NCBI GenBank assembly: GCA_041485695.1
Contig: JBGPJZ010000001.1
Location: 129,316 to 193,315 of the forward strand
Length of the DNA stretch: 64,000 nucleotides
Direction of reading: 5' to 3'
From: Minisyncoccia bacterium
GTDB taxonomy: Bacteria; Patescibacteriota; Minisyncoccia; Phycocordibacterales; Phycocordibacteraceae
Shown: positions 2,156 through 38,870 of the stretch, piece by piece
How positions within the stretch are numbered: position 1 is the stretch's first letter
Layout: the number at the start of each line of letters is the position of its first letter
Notes under the pieces: model-generated
The model's database searches: none
What the model was told of the DNA's origin: nothing
Seen by the model: only the letters and a program-made list of their open reading frames with translations
Program-made: the position numbers and the translations under genes

Positions 2156-2533
2156 TCACCCTGAGCTTTGCGAAGTGGGTGCCGCACGGCCAAAGTCGTC
2201 TTCAACCCGTACGATGTCGTTCTCGTCAAAATCGCCCACGGCAATTTCGAGCACCCAGATGCCCTCGGGCCCGGAGGTCAAGCGATGGAGGGTCCCGGCC
2301 GGTATTTCGAATTCGCTCCCCGCCTTCGCCTCCTTCTCTTCATCGCCGACTTGCGCAGAGCCGCTCCCGGTGAGGACATGCCAGAATTCATTACGCTTCG
2401 CGTGCTTTTGCAGAGAAAGGCGCTGGCCCGGCTTGACGTAGACCATCTTCACCGTTGACGCCTCGTTCAGCGTGAAGCGAAGGAACGAACCCCACGGTCT
2501 GTCCTCATGGTCGCGATGAGTAAGGAGCGCCAT
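2156..2533 (-). CDS. cupin-domain protein (mannose-6-phosphate isomerase type II C-terminal cupin-like)
   Basis: 125 aa with RPWGSF...GQRLSLQKH..RNEFWHV..G motifs typical of the ManC-type cupin. Confidence 0.6.
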   Translation of the reverse strand: MALLTHRDHEDRPWGSFLRFTLNEASTVKMVYVKPGQRLSLQKHAKRNEFWHVLTGSGSAQVGDEEKEAKAGSEFEIPAGTLHRLTSGPEGIWVLEIAVGDFDENDIVRVEDDFGRAAPTSQSSG

Positions 2534-2550
2534 TACTCATAAGATAACAT

Positions 2551-3360
2551 CTACCGGATAAAAAAGAAGAAGAAGACCACAGCCAAGAGGATGCGGTAGA
2601 TGCCGAAGTTCGTGAGCGCACGATTTTCATTAATATAGCGGAGTAAGAAGCGCATTGCGAATATCGCGATGATGAAAGCCGTGATAAAGCCGATGGCGAG
2701 AAGCCCGAACTCCGTGCCCGTTATCTGCGAACTCGTTTTAAGGAGGTCGTAGCCCGATGCTGCGAGCAAGGTCGGCACCGCAAGCAAGAACGAGAATTTG
2801 ACGATGGTCTGTCGTGGCACCCCGAGGTAGAGGCCGCCGAGAATCGTAGCAGCGCTCCGCGAGATGCCCGGGACAAGGGCGAGCGCCTGCATAAGGCCGA
2901 TGAGAGCCGCCTGAAAGTAGGAAATGTCATCAACTGGCTCCTCGGGAGCCGGTGCGAAATCGAGCACCTCGAAAAGGATAAGGAAGAGACCGCCTAGGAA
3001 AAGCGCAACGAGTACCACCCAGACGTTGCCGATGAGGTAAGCCTTCACGAAGTGGTAGAGCGTAAGCCCGATGATGCCGGTGGGGATAAAGGCCACGGCA
3101 AGCTTTTTCAACAATACCCAGTCGAAGAAGGAGCGAAAGTAAAGCGCAACCACAGCCGAGATGGAGCCCAATTGGATGACGATCTCGAATGTCTTTATGA
3201 AGTCAGTCTGCGTGATGTTAAGCAAGGAGCTCGCAAGGATAAGGTGCCCGGTCGAAGAGATGGGCAAGAATTCGGTCGCGCCCTCGACGATGCCGAGGAT
3301 AATCGCGTCAAACGGGGTCATGCGGACAGCGTAGCACAAGCCGATTAGACCTATTGACAA
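2551..3360 (-). CDS. uppP: undecaprenyl-diphosphate phosphatase
   Basis: 269-aa polytopic membrane protein; GATEFLPISSTGHL motif characteristic of UppP/BacA. Confidence 0.9.
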   Translation of the reverse strand: MSIGLIGLCYAVRMTPFDAIILGIVEGATEFLPISSTGHLILASSLLNITQTDFIKTFEIVIQLGSISAVVALYFRSFFDWVLLKKLAVAFIPTGIIGLTLYHFVKAYLIGNVWVVLVALFLGGLFLILFEVLDFAPAPEEPVDDISYFQAALIGLMQALALVPGISRSAATILGGLYLGVPRQTIVKFSFLLAVPTLLAASGYDLLKTSSQITGTEFGLLAIGFITAFIIAIFAMRFLLRYINENRALTNFGIYRILLAVVFFFFFIR

Positions 3361-3382
3361 AGAAATGTCAATGTGTTAGTAT
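3354..3382 (+). promoter_or_regulatory. sigma70-like promoter (TTGACA-17-TAGTAT) upstream of the 3D-domain gene
   Basis: ttgacaaagaaatgtcaatgtgttagtat; 17-nt spacer. Confidence 0.4.
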
Positions 3383-3442
3383 GTGAATTAACGAGGTATT
3401 TACTGGCTGTTTTAAAGAGCTGGTAGATGCCCGTTTTCATTA

Positions 3443-3988
3443 ATGTCTACATTCATATTAGGCGGCCTCATGGCTTTTTTCATCTTGACCGGCTCGGCCG
3501 GCCACGCCTCTGCACCCGAATTCCCGACCTACACCACGTCGGTGACGGGCTATAACGCCGTAGCCGCCCAGACTGACGGCGATCCTTCGACGACTGCGAG
3601 CGGCGCTCTCTCCAACACGGCTGTCGTCGCTGCGCGTTCGCGCGACCTCGCCGATGAGCTCCCCTTCGGTACGGTCATCGCAATCGAGCCCTCGACCGAG
3701 CGCTCCGATACCTGCGGCCTCGATTTTGTCGGCCCCAAGGTCGGCTACCGCGTCATCGCCGACACCATGAATGCCCGTATCACGAACACGGTTGACGTGC
3801 TTTTCGCCACCGATAACACGTTCACGGTGGGTGGCAAAGCGGTCAACGCCGCTCGCGCCTTGGGCTCCTGTAAAGACGTGACGATTCGCGTCGTGGGCCA
3901 CATCGACATCTCGAAGCCCTCGAACCTCCCGAAATCGCAGACGGCGCTCGCCGCCATGGTCGGCGCCTCGGGCCTTGCAGTTAAATAA
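3443..3988 (+). CDS. secreted 3D-domain protein (MltA/YabE-type cell-wall-associated domain)
   Basis: Signal-peptide-like N-terminus; TGYN..QTDGDPSTTASG motif of the 3D domain. Confidence 0.55.
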   Translation: MSTFILGGLMAFFILTGSAGHASAPEFPTYTTSVTGYNAVAAQTDGDPSTTASGALSNTAVVAARSRDLADELPFGTVIAIEPSTERSDTCGLDFVGPKVGYRVIADTMNARITNTVDVLFATDNTFTVGGKAVNAARALGSCKDVTIRVVGHIDISKPSNLPKSQTALAAMVGASGLAVK

Positions 3989-3997
3989 TCTTTGAAA

Positions 3998-4037
3998 ACA
4001 AACCGCCCCGGCTCTACGCCGGGGCGGTTTGTTTTAT
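3998..4037 (+). terminator. rho-independent terminator
   Basis: aaaccgccccggc-tctacg-ccggggcggttt hairpin followed by gtttt. Confidence 0.7.
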
Positions 4038-4057
4038 GCTATCGTGCATGAACTCCT

Positions 4058-5188
4058 ATGAAAGTCGCGCTCTTTACGGACACATTCGTCCCCCAAGTAA
4101 ATGGGGTTGCAAATGCCGTAGAGCAAACGGCCATCTCACTTTCACAGTTCGGCCATACAGTGCGTGTTTACGCTGTCTCAAAGGATGCTCAAGCGTTGAA
4201 CAAACGTGCGCAAGGGCACTATAGTGTTTTTACTTTCCCTTCAATCCCCGCCATGGTCTACCGTGGCCTGCGTGCGACTCTCCCGCTAGGGATGGCTCTG
4301 CGTGATGTACGGACCTTTGCTCCTGACATTATTCATACGCATACGCCCTTTGGTGCCGGCTGGGAGGCTGTCCGCGCTGCACGCAAACTCGGTATACCGC
4401 TCGTAGGTACGCACCATACTTTTTTTGACCACTACTTGAAGCACGTCGGCCTTGATTTTAGTTTGATGCGTAAGGCAACGTGGAGACTTACGGTCGGATA
4501 CTATAACCGTACCCTTGCAGTCATAAGCCCGACCCGCTCACTTATGGAGGAGATGGTCAAGCACGGTCTTGCTACACCGACCTACCTTATCCCAAACACC
4601 GTTGATACTGCCTGGTTCAACCCACCTATCGAAGCGGCAGAAACTCAAAAACCAGTGATTCTCTACCTTGGCCGCTTAAGCTATGAGAAAAGCGTTGACG
4701 ACGTTCTTCGCGCTTTCGCGCTTATCCGCACGCAGGTTCCCGCGACGCTCTTAATCGTGGGTGACGGCCCAGAACGGGCGTCGCTTGAACACCTTGCGAG
4801 CGAGCTCGGCATCAAGGAGGCAGTACGCTTTACTGGGTTCCTCCATGGCGAAGAACTCGTGCGCGCTCTCCAGAGCGCGTTGCTCTTCATGAGCGCAAGC
4901 AAGAGCGAGAATATGCCGCTTTCAGTACTCGAAGCTATGGCGGTTGGACTCCCGATCGTCGTCGTCGATTCGCTTGGTATGAGCGAATTACTGCGCCCAG
5001 GAGAGAACGCGACCTTGACCCTCCCAGGCAAGCCGGGAGAGCTTGCCGAGGCCGCGCTCGCGCTTATCGCTGATGAGCCGCGACGTGTGCGCTACGCGCA
5101 CGCGTCGCGCGAACACGCTCTGTCATTTAGCCCCGAGGCTGTTATCGAACGCCTCCTTGAAGTGTACGAACGTGCGCGCCGCGCTTAG
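4058..5188 (+). CDS. glycosyltransferase family 4
   Basis: 376 aa; N-terminal MKVALFTDTFVPQVNGVA and C-terminal E-x7-E region typical of GT4 (PimA/MshA-like). Confidence 0.8.
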   Translation: MKVALFTDTFVPQVNGVANAVEQTAISLSQFGHTVRVYAVSKDAQALNKRAQGHYSVFTFPSIPAMVYRGLRATLPLGMALRDVRTFAPDIIHTHTPFGAGWEAVRAARKLGIPLVGTHHTFFDHYLKHVGLDFSLMRKATWRLTVGYYNRTLAVISPTRSLMEEMVKHGLATPTYLIPNTVDTAWFNPPIEAAETQKPVILYLGRLSYEKSVDDVLRAFALIRTQVPATLLIVGDGPERASLEHLASELGIKEAVRFTGFLHGEELVRALQSALLFMSASKSENMPLSVLEAMAVGLPIVVVDSLGMSELLRPGENATLTLPGKPGELAEAALALIADEPRRVRYAHASREHALSFSPEAVIERLLEVYERARRA

Positions 5189-5916: not shown

Positions 5917-6497
5917 AAAGAGGAGAAGCGCTTCCGCAGATAGCGATTTACACCGCGGAGCGCGAAGAAAGCGCTGATGAGTAGCGCCACAAGGAGGACA
6001 TCACGAAGACCTGTGTTTATCGCAAGGTACGCATTGCCGAAGAAGTAGCCGACGGCCATAAGGAGCCCCGTCCAGATAAAACCGCCAAGAATATTGATGA
6101 GCGCATATTTGCGAAAGGGGGTATGTGCAGCGCCTGCTGCCATCAGGGTCGCGAGCGCGAAGCCGAAGCCCATGGTGATTTTCGAGATAAAGAGAATCTT
6201 TATGCTGTACTTGCGAAACAACCTCTCGAACCGATCGATGTCAGCGAGGCTTACTGATAAGAAGTAGCCGAACCGCTCGAGAAGGGAGCGGGCGCCATAG
6301 CGGCCGATACCGTACCAAAGGATGTCCCCGACAAAGTCCCCCGCCATAAGGAGAAAGTAGGTGGGGATAAGTTCGAGGCCGCCCAGCCGTACGATAAAGC
6401 CGCAAAAGAGCATGACCACAGGCCCTTCGATAATGGTGAGGGGGAGGAGTACCCAGTAGCGGTACGCGAGTATCCACATGAGGGACGCTTCGAGCAT
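5913..6497 (-). CDS. DedA/SNARE-associated family membrane protein
   Basis: 194-aa membrane protein with DedA-like core (GPVVMLFCGF...GDFVGDILWYGIGRYG). Confidence 0.75.
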   Translation of the reverse strand: MLEASLMWILAYRYWVLLPLTIIEGPVVMLFCGFIVRLGGLELIPTYFLLMAGDFVGDILWYGIGRYGARSLLERFGYFLSVSLADIDRFERLFRKYSIKILFISKITMGFGFALATLMAAGAAHTPFRKYALINILGGFIWTGLLMAVGYFFGNAYLAINTGLRDVLLVALLISAFFALRGVNRYLRKRFSSL

Positions 6498-15511: not shown

Positions 15512-15799
15512 CTAGTTCGTCATCGCTCCCGTTTCCTCCTTCAGTTTGTTTTCAGTCATTTGCTTAACATTTTGTGCCGCTTTAATAGCGTTCAAATCCC
15601 GTTGAACCGTAGCGGGCGTGTCCATGGGGAATGCGCCCGTACCTCCGGTGCCGACACTTTTATTGTTAGTTGAAAATAGGTCCATCCGCCAGGTAAGAAA
15701 CGCGATAAGGAGACAGGTAATCAACAGTGCCAAGAGCCCGACGTATCCGCCCGACGTACTCCGGTTCATAGGTGCATAAAGTGTACCCCGACGGGTCAA
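15512..15799 (-). CDS. hypothetical small membrane-anchored protein
   Basis: 95-aa ORF with one hydrophobic helix. Confidence 0.3.
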   Translation of the reverse strand: MTRRGTLYAPMNRSTSGGYVGLLALLITCLLIAFLTWRMDLFSTNNKSVGTGGTGAFPMDTPATVQRDLNAIKAAQNVKQMTENKLKEETGAMTN

Positions 15800-15875: not shown

Positions 15876-16127
15876 ATGGCTCACAAAGAACTCGCCGGCG
15901 GCGTGGTACACAAGATGCCAGCAGATTTGCGAAAGGCCCTGATTTCGACTCCGGCGGCGCGAGCGGCCTGGGAGGATATCACCCCGCTCGCACGCAACGA
16001 GTGGCTTTGCTGGATTACCTCCGGCAAAAAAGTAGAGACGCGGAGCGTCCGCATCAAGAAGGCGCTCTCAAAGCTTCGGGGCGGAATGCGCCGGCCTTGC
16101 TGTTGGGCCGGCTGCCCTCATCGTTGA
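15876..16127 (+). CDS. YdeI/OmpD-associated (OmdA) domain protein
   Basis: 83 aa; AARAAWEDITPLARNEWLCWITSGKKVETRSVRIKKAL matches the OmdA C-terminal consensus. Confidence 0.5.
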   Translation: MAHKELAGGVVHKMPADLRKALISTPAARAAWEDITPLARNEWLCWITSGKKVETRSVRIKKALSKLRGGMRRPCCWAGCPHR

Positions 16128-16140
16128 TTCGAACCCATGT

Positions 16141-16186
16141 ATAAAAAAGAAAAGCCGCCTCCAACGACTTTTCGTTAGGGGCGGCG
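16141..16186 (-). terminator. rho-independent terminator for the 16197..16514 gene
   Basis: Minus strand: cgccgcccctaacgaaaagtcgttggaggcggc hairpin then ttttcttttttat. Confidence 0.6.
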
Positions 16187-16196
16187 AGGGTTGAGC

Positions 16197-16514
16197 TCAG
16201 GCCTTCTTTTTGGGCAGACGGCGGCAGATTCCATCCCAAATTTGCTTCCGTTCTTCCGCTGTAAAAGGCCTATGCAGCTCCAGACCGTATCCCGCCTGTT
16301 CATCATCGGTTCGGTCGTAGTGGACGTAAGTCTGCTCACTAAAGACGACCTGTGTTTTCTTCATATCCCCCATCTCTTCGACGAGAGCCGTCAGTGCCCA
16401 TTCAAGTTGCGAATGGGCCGAAGCTCCCTTGCCACGCCCAACAAGATAGATGCACTCAACAACATTCCTTGGATTCCGCCTCTCATAGACGGACAAAGAA
16501 AAGGTGACAGTCAT
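16197..16514 (-). CDS. hypothetical small protein (105 aa)
   Basis: Start moved to internal ATG 16514 (MTVTFSLSV...), which has a GGGAGG RBS and lies downstream of the mapped promoter. The ORF-track start at 16607 would be upstream of the promoter. Confidence 0.45.
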   Translation of the reverse strand: MTVTFSLSVYERRNPRNVVECIYLVGRGKGASAHSQLEWALTALVEEMGDMKKTQVVFSEQTYVHYDRTDDEQAGYGLELHRPFTAEERKQIWDGICRRLPKKKA

Positions 16515-16550
16515 GGTGGCCTCCCGTGGCGCTAGAATGAACGTGTTTAA

Positions 16551-16625
16551 CGAGCTCGAAGACTCGTTGCTGTTTCTATATATAGCACACCATATAAATA
16601 CTGTCAACCTCTGCTCCGCCGGATA
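16551..16625 (-). repeat. promoter/leader cassette copy A (~75 bp): tRNA-3'-end-like segment + TTGACA-17-TATATA + conserved leader start
   Basis: ~75% identical to 17101..17176. Shared blocks are gctccgc, ctgtcaa, tatata and gactcg..gctg..tttc. Confidence 0.55.
16577..16607 (-). promoter_or_regulatory. sigma70-like promoter TTGACA-17-TATATA (copy A)
   Basis: Minus strand: ttgacagtatttatatggtgtgctatata. Confidence 0.5.
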
Positions 16626-16701
16626 GAAAACGTTCGAACCTGTTTGGTATAGAAATCAAAAGCCCCGCACCAAATTGTGCGGGGCTCGTGGCTCAACTCG
16701 T

Positions 16702-17055
16702 CTACCATCCCTTCATCCAGAAACCCTGCTGCTGACCGAAGGGCGTGATGTAACACATCACTTTTGCCGTCGGGAAATGCCTGCTCACCGCTTCGCCGAG
16801 CTGCTTTGCAAGCGTCGCGCGAACCTCGTCGGTTCGTTCGGGCATTTCCCAGAGTTCGGCGACCTCGATAGCAATTTCGGTTCCGAGACCGTAGTTCATC
16901 ATATCTTTTGGGAAAAGAGTAAGGATGTCCCCCTCATCTTTCAAACCAAGTTCCTTGACACTTACTGCGGCTCTAACGATTTCTTGATGAACCTCGCGAA
17001 GTTTTTCCTCAGTGAGATTGTTGGGGAGGCACCAAACCTTGATCATCGGCATCAT
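16702..17055 (-). CDS. tautomerase-superfamily-like small protein (tandem beta-alpha-beta halves), hypothetical
   Basis: 117 aa starting MMPMIKVW; two ~55-aa halves resemble fused 4-oxalocrotonate-tautomerase-like units. GAAGGA RBS. Weak assignment. Confidence 0.4.
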   Translation of the reverse strand: MMPMIKVWCLPNNLTEEKLREVHQEIVRAAVSVKELGLKDEGDILTLFPKDMMNYGLGTEIAIEVAELWEMPERTDEVRATLAKQLGEAVSRHFPTAKVMCYITPFGQQQGFWMKGW

Positions 17056-17100
17056 CCAAGCGTCCTTCGGCGCGATAGCGATAGATTGAAAGGGAACAAT

Positions 17101-17176
17101 TGAGCTTAATGACTCGGTACTGCTTTCTTATATATCACGATACAGTATAACTGTCAAATCTAGCTCCGCGGGTAAG
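17101..17176 (-). repeat. promoter/leader cassette copy B; begins with a 14-nt near-exact copy of the tRNA 3' end (gctccgcgggta[a/g]g)
   Basis: 17163..17176 gctccgcgggtaag versus tRNA 3' end 17246..17259 gctccgcgggtagg (13/14). Remainder ~75% identical to copy A. Confidence 0.55.
17129..17157 (-). promoter_or_regulatory. sigma70-like promoter TTGACA-17-TATATA (copy B)
   Basis: Minus strand: ttgacagttatactgtatcgtgatatata. Confidence 0.5.
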
Positions 17177-17202
17177 TAAGCTTGCCCGCGTTCTCCTCGT
17201 TC

Positions 17203-17236
17203 AAAAACAAAAAGCCCTTTCAAGGCTTTTTGTTTT
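17203..17236. terminator. bidirectional rho-independent terminator (downstream of the intron-containing tRNA)
   Basis: aaaaagcc-ctttcaa-ggcttttt flanked by A/T runs on both sides. Confidence 0.6.
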
Positions 17237-17244
17237 ACTCACTC

Positions 17245-17539
17245 GGCTCCGCGGGTAGGAGTCGAACCTACAACCAACTCCTTACATCGATCCTTACGTT
17301 TCCGAAAGGGATGGACTATATCATCACCGGATCTCGGTGCGAGGAGCTTCCAATCTCGACAGTACGTCGGAACTGTACTCCCGTTAGGGATAGTCTCTGA
17401 ACCTTTCCTGTTTTTACAGGACTTGGCTGCTGATTACCCGACAAGGGCTTCCAGCAATTCACCTCGTTATTCGACTCGGATTCCTCCGAGAAGCTGCGTT
17501 AAGCCACAGGGAGCTGCTCTACCATTGAGCTACCGCGGA
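17245..17539 (-). tRNA. tRNA gene interrupted by a group I intron; mature tRNA most parsimoniously tRNA-Asn(GUU)
   Basis: Hand-folded. 5' exon 17506..17539 gives acceptor stem, D-arm GCUC-AAUGGUA-GAGC, anticodon stem GCUCC and loop start CUGU. 3' exon 17245..17284 gives UAA, GGAGU, variable UGGUU, T-arm GUAGG-UUCGACU-CCUAC, acceptor CCGCGGA, discriminator G and CC. Joined anticodon loop is CU-GUU-AA. 5' exon ends in U that can pair with G of the intron GCAG (P1); intron ends in omega-G. Confidence 0.75.
17285..17505 (-). mobile_element. group I self-splicing intron (~221 nt, no internal ORF) in the tRNA anticodon loop
   Basis: Contains recognisable group I core elements: P (GAAUUGCUGGAAG), Q (AAUCAGCAGC), R (GGUUCAGAGACUA) and S (AUGAUAUAGUCC), with P7 GACUA/UAGUC pairing and terminal G. 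Confidence 0.75.
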
Positions 17540-17617: not shown

Positions 17618-17971
17618 ATGATGCGATCATGTAAGAGGCATGGGGTCACGAAATATTTCATGCGCACCGAAGGGTGGTATCGATGCGGGAAATGCGCGTC
17701 GGAAGCTGTCATTGAAAATCGGCGGCGGAAAAAGACAAAACTTGTGGAGAAGTTCGGTGGCAAGTGTACTATATGCGGATACAATAAATACGTTGGAGCT
17801 CTTGATTTTCATCACACGAGTCCTAAGACAAAGAAGTTTGCTCTAAGTGTTAAAGGACTGTCGTATTCATGGAGCTCAATTCTCGAGGAAGCAAAAAAAG
17901 TGCACATTAGTATGCAAGAATTGTCATGCCGAGATTGAAGCGGGTATTACTAATCTCTCCGTCAAAAATTA
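17618..17971 (+). pseudogene. free-standing HNH homing-endonuclease-like gene, interrupted by a frameshift in an A7 run (17893..17899)
   Basis: Frame 1 (17618..17938) encodes the zinc-ribbon plus CTICGY...ALDFHHTSP HNH core and then stops. Removing one A joins ...CTLVCKNCHAEIEAGITNLSVKN (the N..LC..CH HNH tail) ending at the TAA at 17969..17971. GC ~45%, clearly below the window average. Confidence 0.6.
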
Positions 17972-17975
17972 AAAT

Positions 17976-18353
17976 ATGATTGAACACATCTCTGTGCCGG
18001 TGAAGAATGCGAAGAAGGCGAAGAAGTTCTACGCCGCGGCCCTGAAGCCGCTTGGCTACAAGCTCAAGTATGAGTGGGGTCCCTCCGCCGCGGGCTTCAT
18101 GGAGGGCGGGCATACGAGCTTCATCATCATGGGCAGGAAGCGCCCGCAAAAGACGCACGTCGCTTTCCACGCGAAAAGCAAGAAGGCCGTGCAGGGTTTT
18201 TACAAAGCGGCGATGAAGGCCGGTGCGAAGGACAACGGCGCGCCCGGTTTCCGCACGGACTACGGGCCGACCTACTACGCGGCCTTCGTCTATGACCCCG
18301 ACGGCCACAACGTCGAGGCGTGTTATTTCGGCGCTCGCGCTCCAGGGATGTAG
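17976..18353 (+). CDS. glyoxalase/bleomycin-resistance/VOC-family protein
   Basis: 125 aa; VOC fold motifs (HISVPVKN..., FVYDPDGHNVE). Confidence 0.7.
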   Translation: MIEHISVPVKNAKKAKKFYAAALKPLGYKLKYEWGPSAAGFMEGGHTSFIIMGRKRPQKTHVAFHAKSKKAVQGFYKAAMKAGAKDNGAPGFRTDYGPTYYAAFVYDPDGHNVEACYFGARAPGM

Positions 18354-38681: not shown

Positions 38682-38870
38682 TCATTCCTCACTTTCGGTT
38701 GTTCGGGAAGGGCTCTCAAAGAGCGCCATCGATATTTATACTCTCTATATTCAGAATGTCAAACAGCGTGACCCCGACTCGATTTCTATCCCCATATTTT
38801 GACAGGAAGCCTTGCGCGATTCGCGAGAGGCCGTATAGTTGCCCCCATTGTCTATAAAATATCTTGAGAG

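Follow-up and report, generated by a model that had tools for sequence, protein, structure and literature searches.

Downstream of a tRNA-Asn(GUU) gene that is interrupted by an intron, the window (the whole 64,000-nt stretch of Minisyncoccia DNA that was analysed, hereafter 64 kb) contains two small genes on the minus strand, each preceded by its own promoter and leader and followed by its own intrinsic terminator. The features are listed below in the direction of transcription; L004 is a locus of Ca. Adlerbacteria MFD09222 (L004/L013), the closest relative, whose gene B product is 81% identical in amino acid sequence.

17506..17539, minus strand: tRNA-Asn(GUU) 5' exon, ending ...CTGT at position 35; 100% identical to L004 4824-4857 (intron-less tRNA-Asn)
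17285..17505, minus strand: group I intron (Rfam RF00028, 77.7 bits, E 3e-19), 221 nt long, inserted between positions 35 and 36 of the anticodon loop
17246..17284, minus strand: tRNA-Asn 3' exon, last bases ...TACCCGCGGAGC, the 'T' site and array anchor; 97% identical to L004 4858-4896, matched by the T/J profile
17175..17245, minus strand: 71-nt insert, absent in the closest relative, with terminator hairpin arms at 17204-17216 and 17224-17236
17163..17176, minus strand: relic B, a displaced tRNA-Asn 3' end, CTTACCCGCGGAGC, with a 12-nt exact direct repeat
17129..17157, minus strand: promoter B, TTGACAG-N12-GTGaTATATA (-35, 17-nt spacer, extended -10), an orthologue of the L004 gene B promoter
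17056..17128, minus strand: leader B (5' UTR), with a predicted stem-loop at ~17102-17117, a TTCAATCTA box and an AAGGA ribosome-binding site
16702..17052, minus strand: gene B, 116 aa from Pro1, tautomerase-superfamily protein with two beta-alpha-beta units
16660..16687, minus strand: gene B intrinsic terminator, an 11-bp stem with 8 GC pairs, then a T-run
16613..16651, minus strand: J(A), a 39-nt mimic of the tRNA-Asn 3' part from T-loop to acceptor, TATACCAAACAGGTTCGAACGTTTTCTATCCGGCGGAGC (T/J profile E 1.6e-6)
16579..16607, minus strand: promoter A, TTGACAG-N12-GTGcTATATA
16515..16578, minus strand: leader A (5' UTR), with a stem-loop at 16550-16567 (ACGAG/CTCGT), a TTCATTCTA box and a GGAGG ribosome-binding site
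16197..16514, minus strand: gene A, 105 aa, alpha/beta
16149..16173, minus strand: gene A intrinsic terminator, conserved along with gene A in locus L005
16126..16143, minus strand: J3, the third junction, truncated (TATACATGGGTTCGAATC) and lying where the array ends distally; overlaps the OmdA stop codon by 2 nt

The products of genes A and B are unrelated, as held by a preliminary description of this DNA, given that BLASTP gave no alignment between them at E ≤ 100, and the possibility that they are diverged paralogues from a tandem gene duplication was rejected on the same result. Gene A matched no Pfam family. Gene B had been described as encoding a 117-aa tautomerase-like protein; the family assignment stands, but the start was moved to the second ATG (17052), which gives a 116-aa protein beginning with Pro1. 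The resulting MP.(I/V)(K/T)VWCLP start occurs in all but one of the 17 aligned family members (window protein and homologues). The AF2 model of gene B (pLDDT 90.5) has a topology of two beta-alpha-beta units, and Foldseek retrieved fused 4-OT, cis-CaaD, Cg10062 and MIF (probability 1.0; E 2e-6 to 4e-5 for fused 4-OT, cis-CaaD and MIF), while Pfam and NCBIfam searches gave only sub-threshold matches (Pfam Tautomerase, E 0.03). Judging from Pro1 and the modelled fold, the gene B product is a tautomerase-superfamily protein. A functional pair of A and B was also considered and discarded, since the gene B homologue in L007 adjoins a 105-aa gene that is unrelated to gene A. At the more distant homologues of A or B (L007, L009, L027, L028, L030 and L031) both the promoter-leader module and tRNA-Asn are absent; the module belongs to the locus and the clade, rather than to the genes.

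The reported similarity between the segments upstream of the two genes is real. Local alignment of the intergenic regions 16515-16701 and 17056-17245 (minus strand) scored 45, compared with 16.0 ± 2.2 (maximum 31) for 500 shuffles and with 26 for the runner-up 190-nt tile anywhere in the window. Homology was therefore upheld, but not the figures of ~75 bp and ~75% first attached to it: the similarity covers ~100 nt (16528-16625 and 17078-17176, minus strand) with 69% global identity, and in both copies runs from GGAGC to ~15-20 nt before the start codon. An nhmmer search of the 64 kb with a two-copy profile found exactly two copies (E 1e-26 to 1e-27), every other match having E > 2. The TTGACA and TATATA elements separated by a 17-nt spacer were found in both copies as described, together with an extended -10 'TG' (GTGnTATATA), and each copy thus consists of TTGACAG, the 17-nt spacer, TGnTATATA and a leader with a stem-loop and the TTCATTCTA box. 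The stem-loop of leader A is also seen as a hairpin on the plus strand.

About 12 matches fall on bases of the promoter consensus (TTGACA, TG, TAnAnA), as would be expected if two strong sigma-70 promoters simply resembled each other and the 12-mer shared with the tRNA were fortuitous. Such a coincidence is nevertheless vanishingly improbable, given that the alignment score lies 13 sd above the shuffles with no other window segment near it, that the nhmmer E value is 1e-26, that the non-consensus parts are retained by homologues in other genomes and that the resemblance to the tRNA reaches p ≤ 0.0005. The module was also rejected as a general promoter type of this genome, because only four sites of the form TTGAC(A/T)..TATA(A/T)(A/T) occur in 64 kb, two of which are the homologous ones. 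A recent in-place duplication is not supported either, the two promoter-leader copies of the window being as distant from one another as from copies in other genomes, or more so; pairwise identities across genomes are 60-76%.

The position of the leader stem-loop is constant in 8 of 11 leaders, with stems that differ yet remain complementary (ACGAAC/GTTCGT, ACGAGT/ACTCGT, CGGA/TCCG and TTGGAG/CTCCAA); these hairpins were read from per-sequence folds, the MAFFT alignment being 1 nt out of register in some rows. Conservation between genomes extends to the box TTCATTCTA(A)C, and Rfam searches of leaders and junctions matched only the intron and tRNAs. Most likely the leader hairpin stabilises or regulates the mRNA, and the promoter-leader likely turns an imported gene into an autonomous, strongly expressed and insulated transcription unit. 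These properties could also be those of a selected cis-regulatory module, in which A, B and the other module genes would form one regulon, GGAGC or J, promoter, hairpin and box would be putative sites for a common regulator or RNA-binding factor, and the likeness to the tRNA would be incidental. The hairpins that vary in sequence while keeping their pairing, the conserved box, the rarity of this promoter type in the window and the cross-genome identities, which suggest long-term constraint, all agree with it. We still regard it as improbable, as it leaves unexplained the exact tRNA-end repeats, the 83-nt insertion, the J lineage behind terminators and the clustering at one tRNA that are presented below, and because distant homologues of genes A and B are found elsewhere without the module; moreover, it explains why the module is retained and not how it was copied, and so complements other explanations more than it competes with them.

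The tRNA gene itself is intact once the intron is removed. The intron boundaries were set by alignment to the intron-less tRNA of L004, and the spliced sequence is recognised by ARAGORN as tRNA-Asn GTT; the same intron site is known in tRNA-Asn of Patescibacteria (bioRxiv 10.1101/2025.07.03.662931). The end of this tRNA-Asn reads ..CCGCGGAGC and the array begins at its last base. That the tRNA-like pieces derive from the tRNA-Asn 3' end was borne out, since in 2000 shuffles the alignment score of either copy was never reached. In copy B, for which a 13/14 match to the tRNA end had been noted, the 12-mer GCTCCGCGGGTA (17163-17174) repeats 17246-17257 at the end of the tRNA exactly.

A simpler state of the locus, predicted to exist in relatives, is found in MFD09222, where the gene B promoter directly adjoins the tRNA end: its intron-less tRNA-Asn ends ...CCTACCCGCGGAGC, TTGACAG follows 5 nt later, and both the 83-nt insertion and the gene A unit are missing. 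In L018/L023 another tRNA-Asn sequence is fused to the promoter in the same direct way, here before an unrelated 172-aa gene, and the offset of relic B from the -35 element equals that of the real tRNA end in L004 and L018. Because the last 12 nt of the L004 tRNA (4885-4896) align by blastn both to 17246-17257 and to 17163-17174, the window carries an 83-nt insertion, composed of the 71-nt insert and one copy of the repeat, with a 12-nt direct repeat. The hairpin of the insert is a perfect 13-nt inverted repeat followed by a T-run (fold z = -3.9). Arrival of the cassettes together with the intron/HNH element, which had been suggested, is contradicted by the intron-less tRNA-Asn of L004, L018 and L020, which have the same modules. 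Arrival with the HNH ORF was likewise rejected, as this HNH-like ORF is frameshifted and its match to Pfam HNH is no better than E 0.066; neither it nor the intron plays a part in the cassette system.

The tRNA-like part of copy A had been taken for a diverged version of the copy B scar. Its likeness to the tRNA holds, but it is longer than claimed (CAGGTTCGAACGTTTTCTATCCGGCGGAGC, 16613-16642, corresponding to the T-loop through the acceptor 3' strand) and belongs to a separate conserved lineage, J. The first 18 nt of J(A) (TACCAAACAGGTTCGAAC) are identical in both J copies of L020 and have two mismatches in L019 and three in L018, and J lies behind cassette terminators in four other contigs (L018, L019, L020 and L022), two of which have tRNA-Asn in the fetched sequence. 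Since the J copies have the same indels relative to the tRNA across genomes, J is a propagated element and no decaying scar. J3, which was read directly from the sequence, aligns to the T-arm of tRNA-Asn with p about 0.0025. The homology between the window (16524-16139) and L005 (4991-5368), at 76% identity, ends exactly at J3. In L005 gene A keeps its ORF and terminator while its promoter-leader has no detectable homology, and therefore the promoter-leader is no fixed part of a gene's cassette.

The fullest array was found in L020, with four to five single-gene units, each having its own promoter and terminator. It starts with tRNA-Asn, a terminator, an 18-nt direct repeat relic with a canonical promoter-leader and gene 1, beyond which three further single-gene units follow, separated by terminator and J. 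Two of the L020 J copies are identical over 49 of 49 nt within unrelated flanks, and the identity of J2 and J4 stops at GGAGCAA. Similarly, L019 and L021, from different metagenome contigs, are identical from GGAGCAAAAC through the promoter into the leader (93% identity over the whole promoter-leader module), with unrelated sequence upstream and an unrelated gene downstream. The point at which modules cease to be identical is precisely GGAGC(AA), where the tRNA ends, and a second break lies ~15-25 nt ahead of the start codons. The constant GGAGC-N5 spacing among the metagenome matches was prescribed by the search pattern, and independent evidence comes only from the sequence beyond GGAGC and from the breakpoints. 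The same modules precede at least 10 unrelated genes on at least seven contigs. On the 518-kb contig of MFD09222 all three copies lie at most ~6.2 kb downstream of tRNA-Asn, and the copies are local, not dispersed. The cargo resembles flexible-genome content, given that eight of the nine cassette proteins in relatives, as well as gene A, have no Pfam family. Within the species, three loci from other samples (L001, L002 and L033) have the arrangement of the window at 99.8-100% identity, with no difference between empty and filled states among them; samples SRR35960035, JGI 3300052991 and 3300053057 carry this organism.

As originally described, the tRNA-like pieces bound small single-gene units. 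With moderate confidence, we interpret the feature as the short local end of an array of single-gene expression cassettes that is anchored at tRNA-Asn(GUU); the cassettes would have entered site-specifically, and their modules would then have been shuffled. Arrays of this type are specific to a Parcubacteria clade related to Ca. Adlerbacteria. Each unit would comprise a left joint, a promoter, a leader, one small gene and its own intrinsic terminator. Left joints would be of three kinds, namely T (the genuine 3' end of tRNA-Asn), the relic (a displaced copy of that end) and J (the conserved 39-nt mimic); the putative promoter is a near-consensus sigma-70 type with extended -10, and the predicted leader of ~65-75 nt contains a 5' stem-loop, the TTCATTCTA(A)C box and a Shine-Dalgarno sequence. 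We postulate that a recombinase encoded elsewhere inserts the units site-specifically at the 3' end of tRNA-Asn, through a crossover in or beside GCGGAGC that would leave the tRNA intact. Newer units would displace older ones distally, a tRNA-like joint being left each time, and the 83-nt terminator insert with its 12-nt direct repeat could be the footprint of one such event, involving a gene-less or deleted unit. Later on, joint, promoter-leader and ORF with terminator would have been reshuffled at short conserved boundaries.

The catalyst is hypothetical, because neither the 64-kb window nor the fetched loci yielded an integrase or other recombinase, in agreement with the lack of an integrase noted before. 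No tyrosine-recombinase motif was detected in ORFs of at least 120 aa from the window and the fetched loci, Pfam searches of 10 unassigned ORFs of the window gave no recombinase, and inspection of the sequences around GCGGAGC revealed no evident dyad symmetry of the kind that tyrosine-recombinase core sites typically show. In IMG/VR the J pattern had two chance matches and the promoter-leader pattern none, and proteins A and B had no relatives; nothing pointing to a phage or plasmid origin was found there. Also counting against site-specific entry, 83 nt is far below the size for a mobile element alone, and neither a polymorphism between empty and filled sites nor a circular junction was seen. 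The decoupling of promoter-leader and ORF is equally compatible with an integrase and with recombination at short boundary homologies, and the sharp identity edges at J could alternatively come from gene conversion confined to the homologous stretch.

A possible, though rather doubtful, alternative is that promoter and module propagated without a dedicated recombinase, the tRNA end, promoter and leader having been copied locally and then swapped among relatives through recombination, whether homologous, homeologous or illegitimate, between short stretches conserved at the module edges (left, GGAGC..TTGACAG; right, TTCTAAC..AGGAG; and the terminator T-run..TATACC), a process to which DNA uptake may contribute; the tRNA-like pieces would then be passengers of the first duplication. 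It would account for the window and fetched loci having no recombinase, for a promoter-leader with two sharp ends that was swapped independently of the ORF (L019 versus L021, window versus L005), and for the truncation point and indels common to all J copies, as if one ancestral copy had spread by duplication; homologous promoters before non-homologous genes are, moreover, described and common (PMC3488235). On the other hand, it poorly explains insertions between exact tRNA-end repeats of 12 nt in the window and 18 nt in L020, and leaves unexplained the breakpoints at the tRNA's last base in independent contigs, the uniform orientation with a regular format of one gene plus terminator, and the confinement of the copies to the tRNA-Asn flank.

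The view that the arrangement has no obvious described counterpart was overstated, as there are earlier descriptions of serial tRNA integration, of att-flanked remnants without an integrase and of mobile promoters; the unusual aspect is a cassette format that is miniature, regular and promoter-bearing. In the tycheposons of Prochlorococcus, newer elements push older ones deeper into the island, where partial tRNAs are scattered (bioRxiv 10.1101/2020.12.28.424599). As in such accretion of tRNA islands, an intact tRNA gene anchors the array by its 3' end, tRNA-3' direct repeats flank an insert (12 nt in the window, 18 nt in L020) with J at further boundaries, and, as in tycheposons, the cargo consists of flexible, uncharacterised genes in a small, streamlined genome. 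However, tycheposons are several kb long, whereas the units described here are of 0.1-0.6 kb with a single gene, have no integrase or replication module nearby and each carry the conserved promoter-leader; furthermore, J is an indel-bearing mimic common to genomes and no copy of the host tRNA end.

Integrons also form co-oriented stacks of small, mostly single-gene and uncharacterised units, with a recurring recombination-site-like element between units and a fixed primary site at one end. The cassettes of integrons typically lack promoters of their own and rely on a common Pc for expression, and a CALIN is an attC cluster without an integrase, for which intI is not required. The array resembles integrons and CALINs in this overall layout, but it differs from integrons in having no intI, in the TTGACAG-17-TATATA site and terminator that each unit has of its own, and in an anchor that is a tRNA end instead of attI; in contrast to integrons and CALINs, no attC architecture (R''/L''-L'/R', RYYYAAC/GTTRRRY cores) was seen by inspection. 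The only palindrome inside J is the 8-nt GTTCGAAC, and no R''/R' pair was found at its two ends by inspection. An attC-like folding of terminator plus J was considered and rejected, its outer stem being predicted in the window and, by inspection, unconserved in L020. A dedicated gene-capture platform of some Patescibacteria, integron-like but differently built, with the tRNA-Asn 3' end as primary site, J as cassette-borne site, a recombinase encoded elsewhere and a standard strong promoter, stem-loop leader and terminator that each captured gene would either enter or bring along, so as to be expressed immediately and independently, is an idea that we advance tentatively and consider unlikely.

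CIMEs are cis-mobilizable remnants that are bounded by att sites, lack an integrase and arise by accretion at a site of integration. The concept and the term appear in PMC5704250 and PMC7563491. Like CIMEs, the array has att-type direct repeats bounding segments that lack recombination genes of their own and that stand in tandem at one attachment site; unlike CIMEs, which are several kb long, derived from ICEs or IMEs and known in Firmicutes, it consists of miniature one-gene units that have a promoter-leader in common. Putative mobile promoters (PMPs; Matus-Garcia et al. 2012, PMC3488235), which have at least 80% identity over at least 50 nt, are defined as promoters of non-homologous genes with non-homologous upstream genes (PMC3488235). 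The module is likewise a homologous promoter region of 50-100 nt before non-homologous genes with non-homologous upstream neighbours, but the window pair, at 69%, is below the 80% threshold (L019 and L021 exceed it with 93%, though on separate metagenome contigs), and the module is tied to a tRNA end and a cassette array, whereas PMPs are generally dispersed. Phage morons are autonomous promoter-gene-terminator units between other genes. The units share this composition with morons, from which they differ in having no phage context (IMG/VR) and in their common promoter-leader and tRNA-like joints.

Members of the Candidate Phyla Radiation have tiny genomes with few recognisable mobile elements, and their gene acquisition is poorly understood. 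The locus illustrates how single accessory genes can be added beside one tRNA gene, and expressed there, in a compact and regular way, and stands out for tRNA-derived joints common to genomes, a reusable promoter-leader and precise module boundaries. If a recombinase were found, it would amount to a new cassette-capture system and to a portable expression module (promoter, stabilising hairpin and ribosome-binding-site context) for organisms without genetic tools. With its defined sequences, it is also a concrete test case for partial tRNA repeats without a nearby integrase.

Even if interpreted conservatively, the locus is a flexible-genome hotspot that has been conserved in this clade. It is flanked by def-fmt on one side and by a gene for a 95-aa membrane protein on the other, both in the window and in the distant L018. 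In L018 a J-type joint lies immediately ahead of the gene for the 95-aa membrane protein.

The window originates from a Parcubacteria (CPR) genome akin to Ca. Adlerbacteria, with the source proteins on a 197-kb NCBI contig; homologues carry the name 'Parcubacteria group bacterium', and the nearest genome is 'Candidatus Adlerbacteria bacterium MFD09222.bin.1.2' (MFD09222; L004, L013 and L015 among the loci fetched from relatives and metagenomes, which bear L numbers). Every relevant feature of the locus is on the minus strand, as follows:

17246-17539, minus: tRNA-Asn(GUU), split at anticodon-loop position 35/36 by a group I intron
17285-17505, minus: the group I intron, 221 nt (Rfam RF00028, 77.7 bits)
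between tRNA-Asn and repeat copy B, minus: terminator hairpin
between the terminator hairpin and gene B, minus: repeat copy B
16702-17052, minus: gene B
16660-16687, minus: gene B terminator
between the gene B terminator and gene A, minus: repeat copy A
16197-16514, minus: gene A
16149-16173, minus: gene A terminator
after the gene A terminator, at the array end: convergent OmdA-family gene

The preliminary description had reported a repeated promoter and leader ahead of the two genes, and the two copies are indeed homologous, over more than the extent first proposed. Local alignment of the two intergenic regions scored 45, against 16.0 +/- 2.2 for shuffles (maximum 31) and 26 for the best other tile in the whole window, and over the 64 kb a two-copy profile matched only the copies themselves (E 1e-26 to 1e-27; next match E 2.6). 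The homologous stretch runs for ~100 nt, from GGAGC to ~15-20 nt ahead of the start codons, with 69% global identity. Both copies contain GGAGC-N5-TTGACAG-N12-GTGnTATATA, that is, a -35 element, a 17-nt spacer and an extended -10, and from this consensus match we infer that they act as promoters; a simple promoter scanner listed neither site because it requires a T at position 6 of the -10 hexamer. Each promoter is followed by a short stem-loop, a TTCA(T/A)TCTA box and a Shine-Dalgarno sequence. The stem-loop occupies one shared position in 8 of 11 leaders, and since the stems differ in sequence but stay complementary, this argues for a putative structural function of the leader RNA, for instance in protecting the 5' end or binding a factor, and against a sequence-specific operator. 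Elsewhere in the window, near-consensus TTGACA..TATAA(A/T) sites occur just twice, at 38762 (-) and 44061 (+); one is upstream of the tRNA-Glu region and one before an unannotated stretch, and both are unrelated to this module.

Judged by alignment, the tRNA-like ends of both copies derive from tRNA-Asn, the tRNA score of each being reached by 0 of 2000 shuffles. Copy B opens with a displaced, exact 12-nt copy of the tRNA end (relic B; 17163-17174 = 17246-17257), and copy A with CAGGTTCGAACGTTTTCTATCCGGCGGAGC, whose alignment to the tRNA spans the T-loop and the 3' strands of T-stem and acceptor, interrupted by small insertions. Past the gene A terminator, right against the OmdA stop codon, there is a third tRNA-like piece, which is truncated (TATACATGGGTTCGAATC, 16126-16143). 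The opening of copy A belongs to a conserved 39-nt T-loop-to-acceptor mimic, here called J. Its first 18 nt (TACCAAACAGGTTCGAAC) are shared without change by window copy A and both L020 copies, with 2 mismatches in L019 and 3 in L018; in every case J directly follows a terminator T-run. Because all J copies carry identical indels when compared with the functional tRNA, they are one propagated lineage rather than scars left separately by the tRNA of each host. A profile of the tRNA-Asn and J ends, run over 161 kb (window plus loci), matched, apart from the tRNA-Asn ends and the J copies already known, a single further site, of J type, in L018 (8830-8855). The new site lies just upstream of the probable start of a 95-aa membrane-protein gene (L018 8817-9104; ..SGGYVGLL.LLIT..), which has a homologue just past the window array (15512-15799, minus), with no J-type mimic at the corresponding spot before it. 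In both the window and the distant L018 (66% nt identity in def-fmt), the variable stretch is flanked by def-fmt on one side and by this membrane-protein gene on the other.

The ancestral junction between tRNA and promoter is preserved in MFD09222 (L004/L013), in which gene B is 81% identical to that of the window and an intron-less tRNA-Asn runs gapless into the gene B promoter (...GTCCTACCCGCGGAGC-TTAAT-TTGACAG). In blastn comparisons, the last 12 nt of this tRNA match both the true tRNA end and relic B of the window, and homology continues through promoter, leader and gene B, ending at the stop codon. Given that one tRNA end aligns to two window sites, the window differs in having an 83-nt insertion, essentially a terminator, with 12 nt of the tRNA end on either side as a direct repeat. 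The gene A unit is whole in the window and absent from MFD09222 at this position. In L018/L023, whose tRNA-Asn sequence is clearly different, the tRNA end is likewise fused to the promoter, before an unrelated 172-aa gene. L004 also holds further tRNA-like fragments after an SDR gene (AGGTTCTAGACTCCCCTATCC and CCGCGTGGCGGAGCC, 6100-6210), which suggests that gene B and the SDR gene may form one older unit ended by a decayed relic.

Two collections were scanned with the pattern GGAGC-N5-TTGACAG-N12-GTG-N-TANATA. Among 185,579 species representatives, MFD09222 was the sole true match (two copies), alongside three chance matches, and the JGI metagenomes yielded seven loci, all true homologues by profile search (E 1e-14 to 1e-25). 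The constant GGAGC-N5 spacing of these matches is imposed by the pattern, and the independent evidence is the sequence beyond GGAGC together with the breakpoints. Profile search also revealed a third, diverged MFD09222 copy (L015 1587-1649). This copy precedes merely a ~29-codon ORF, and an 11-nt tandem duplication in its -35 region (GACAGGTAT TTGACAGGTAT; L015 1555-1600) shifts GGAGC from 5 to 16 nt upstream. All three MFD09222 copies lie no more than ~6.2 kb from the tRNA in a 518-kb contig; the copies are confined to the tRNA-Asn flank.

The clearest array is that of L020, in which tRNA-Asn is followed by a terminator, a ~150-nt palindromic element, a tRNA-end repeat unit and three more units. 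The first unit comprises an 18-nt direct repeat of the tRNA end, a canonical promoter-leader and a 72-aa gene, and each of the three later single-gene units closes with a terminator and then a J-type joint; two joints are TTTTTATACCAAACAGGTTCGAACATCCTCCACCCAGCGGAGC, one is degenerate and the last has decayed. The palindromic element (L020 3233-3384, minus; L021 1891-2040, minus) has the tRNA-Asn terminator on one side and the first promoter-leader on the other. In L020 it has a strong predicted fold (-68 kcal/mol, z = -5.8). Its 5' end (GCTCCGCGG) pairs with a tRNA-end relic at its 3' end, and its inner arms are unlike between the two loci and hairpin-forming in both. It had no Rfam match, and could be a small RNA, a MITE-like element or an inverted duplication. 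Directly adjoining the tRNA-relic region of L021 is a ~2.9 kb low-GC segment (2170-5050) bounded by ~120-nt inverted repeats (5050-4930, 2290-2170), one of which contains the contig end; either a foreign element has inserted here or the assembly is chimeric.

Comparison of units points to three module types, namely joint, promoter-leader, and ORF plus terminator, since identities break at set points. L019 and L021 are identical from GGAGCAAAAC through the promoter into the leader (93% over the module), with unrelated upstream sequence and downstream genes; the L020 joints J2 and J4 share 49 identical nt ending at GGAGCAA, with unrelated flanks on both sides; and L005, a diverged version of this architecture, matches the window at 76% identity across gene A and its terminator, from 10 nt ahead of the ATG as far as the J boundary, with no detectable homology between their promoter-leaders. 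One breakpoint thus falls exactly at the last tRNA bases, a second shortly ahead of the ribosome-binding site. Pairwise identity among promoter-leader copies is 60-76%, and because pairs drawn from different genomes are just as close as the window pair (69%), recent in-place duplication of that pair is ruled out.

Our main reading, held at about even confidence, is that site-specific recombination inserts units at the 3' end of tRNA-Asn. A crossover in or adjoining GCGGAGC would keep the tRNA intact, and the distal side would then show either the J of the incoming unit or the tRNA end that was displaced. Older units would move outward with later insertions, a process reported for Prochlorococcus, where elements integrate serially at tRNA genes (bioRxiv 10.1101/2020.12.28.424599). 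The integration scar originally proposed is partly supported, by the tRNA origin of the joints and by the tRNA-promoter junction in relatives; against our main reading, no recombinase and no within-species polymorphism of the array were found. No tyrosine-recombinase motif was detected in the window or fetched loci, nor any recombinase among the 10 unassigned window ORFs. This lack favors a serious rival, recombination at short conserved module boundaries without a recombinase, which we regard as somewhat unlikely. A pure regulon, in which the shared module is kept for regulation, accounts for its being kept, but for neither the repeats nor the clustering. A dedicated integron-like capture platform served by a trans-acting recombinase is a further, rather unlikely possibility.

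The array represents island accretion anchored at a tRNA: its cassettes are miniature, regularly built and promoter-bearing, and a conserved mimic of the tRNA 3' end serves as their boundary element. It is not an integron, as it lacks intI and attC architecture and its cassettes have their own promoters and terminators. Its likeness to tRNA-targeting integrative islands and to tycheposon-type accretion lies in the anchoring at a tRNA that stays intact and in the tRNA repeats, whether direct or partial, but it has neither an integrase nor kb-scale elements. Like CIMEs, its units are integrase-less and att-flanked, whereas scale, host and content differ. The idea of putative mobile promoters also fits, although the window pair falls below their threshold of at least 80% over at least 50 nt (PMC3488235). 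Phage morons are similarly autonomous transcription units; a search of IMG/VR for a phage link to the array found none.

The proteins encoded by genes A and B are unrelated to each other. Gene B encodes a tautomerase superfamily protein and starts at 17052, since 16 of 17 aligned family members begin with MP.(I/V)(K/T)VWCLP, with Pro1 conserved. Its AF2 model (pLDDT 90.5) has two beta-alpha-beta units and matches fused 4-OT, cis-CaaD, Cg10062 and MIF structures with probability 1.0. Family search assigned the 105-aa gene A product to no family; it has only five homologues besides itself, and its structure model, of moderate quality, gave no informative structural match. In L033, a strain or sample variant of the locus (99.8% identity overall), a 1-nt deletion at 743 (window ~16329) frameshifts gene A, reflecting either incipient gene loss or a sequencing error.

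The tRNA-Asn exon limits were set by alignment to an intron-less orthologue. ARAGORN recognized the spliced sequence as tRNA-Asn and missed the unspliced gene, because the group I intron interrupts it; such an intron at 35/36 of Patescibacteria tRNA-Asn(GUU) is already known (bioRxiv 10.1101/2025.07.03.662931). The earlier suggestion that the cassettes entered with the intron/HNH element is unsupported: the orthologous tRNA-Asn of L004, L018 and L020 lacks the intron, and since such relatives have cassettes, the intron is unrelated to them. Just upstream of the intron-bearing tRNA, outside the intron, is a Cys-rich HNH-like ORF (CxxC..HH..CxxCH; 17618-17972, plus), broken by a frameshift into 17618-17938 and 17847-17972. 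With the two pieces merged it matched Pfam HNH at E 0.066 only, and it may be a decayed free-standing homing endonuclease. A glyoxalase/VOC gene (17976-18353, plus) lies between fmt and the tRNA, on the strand opposite the latter; its MFD09222 orthologue (L015 6366-6746) is ~11 kb downstream of the tRNA, past the variable region and IS-like ORFs, and this shift suggests that a rearrangement, which may have been an inversion, had one of its ends at the tRNA-Asn locus.
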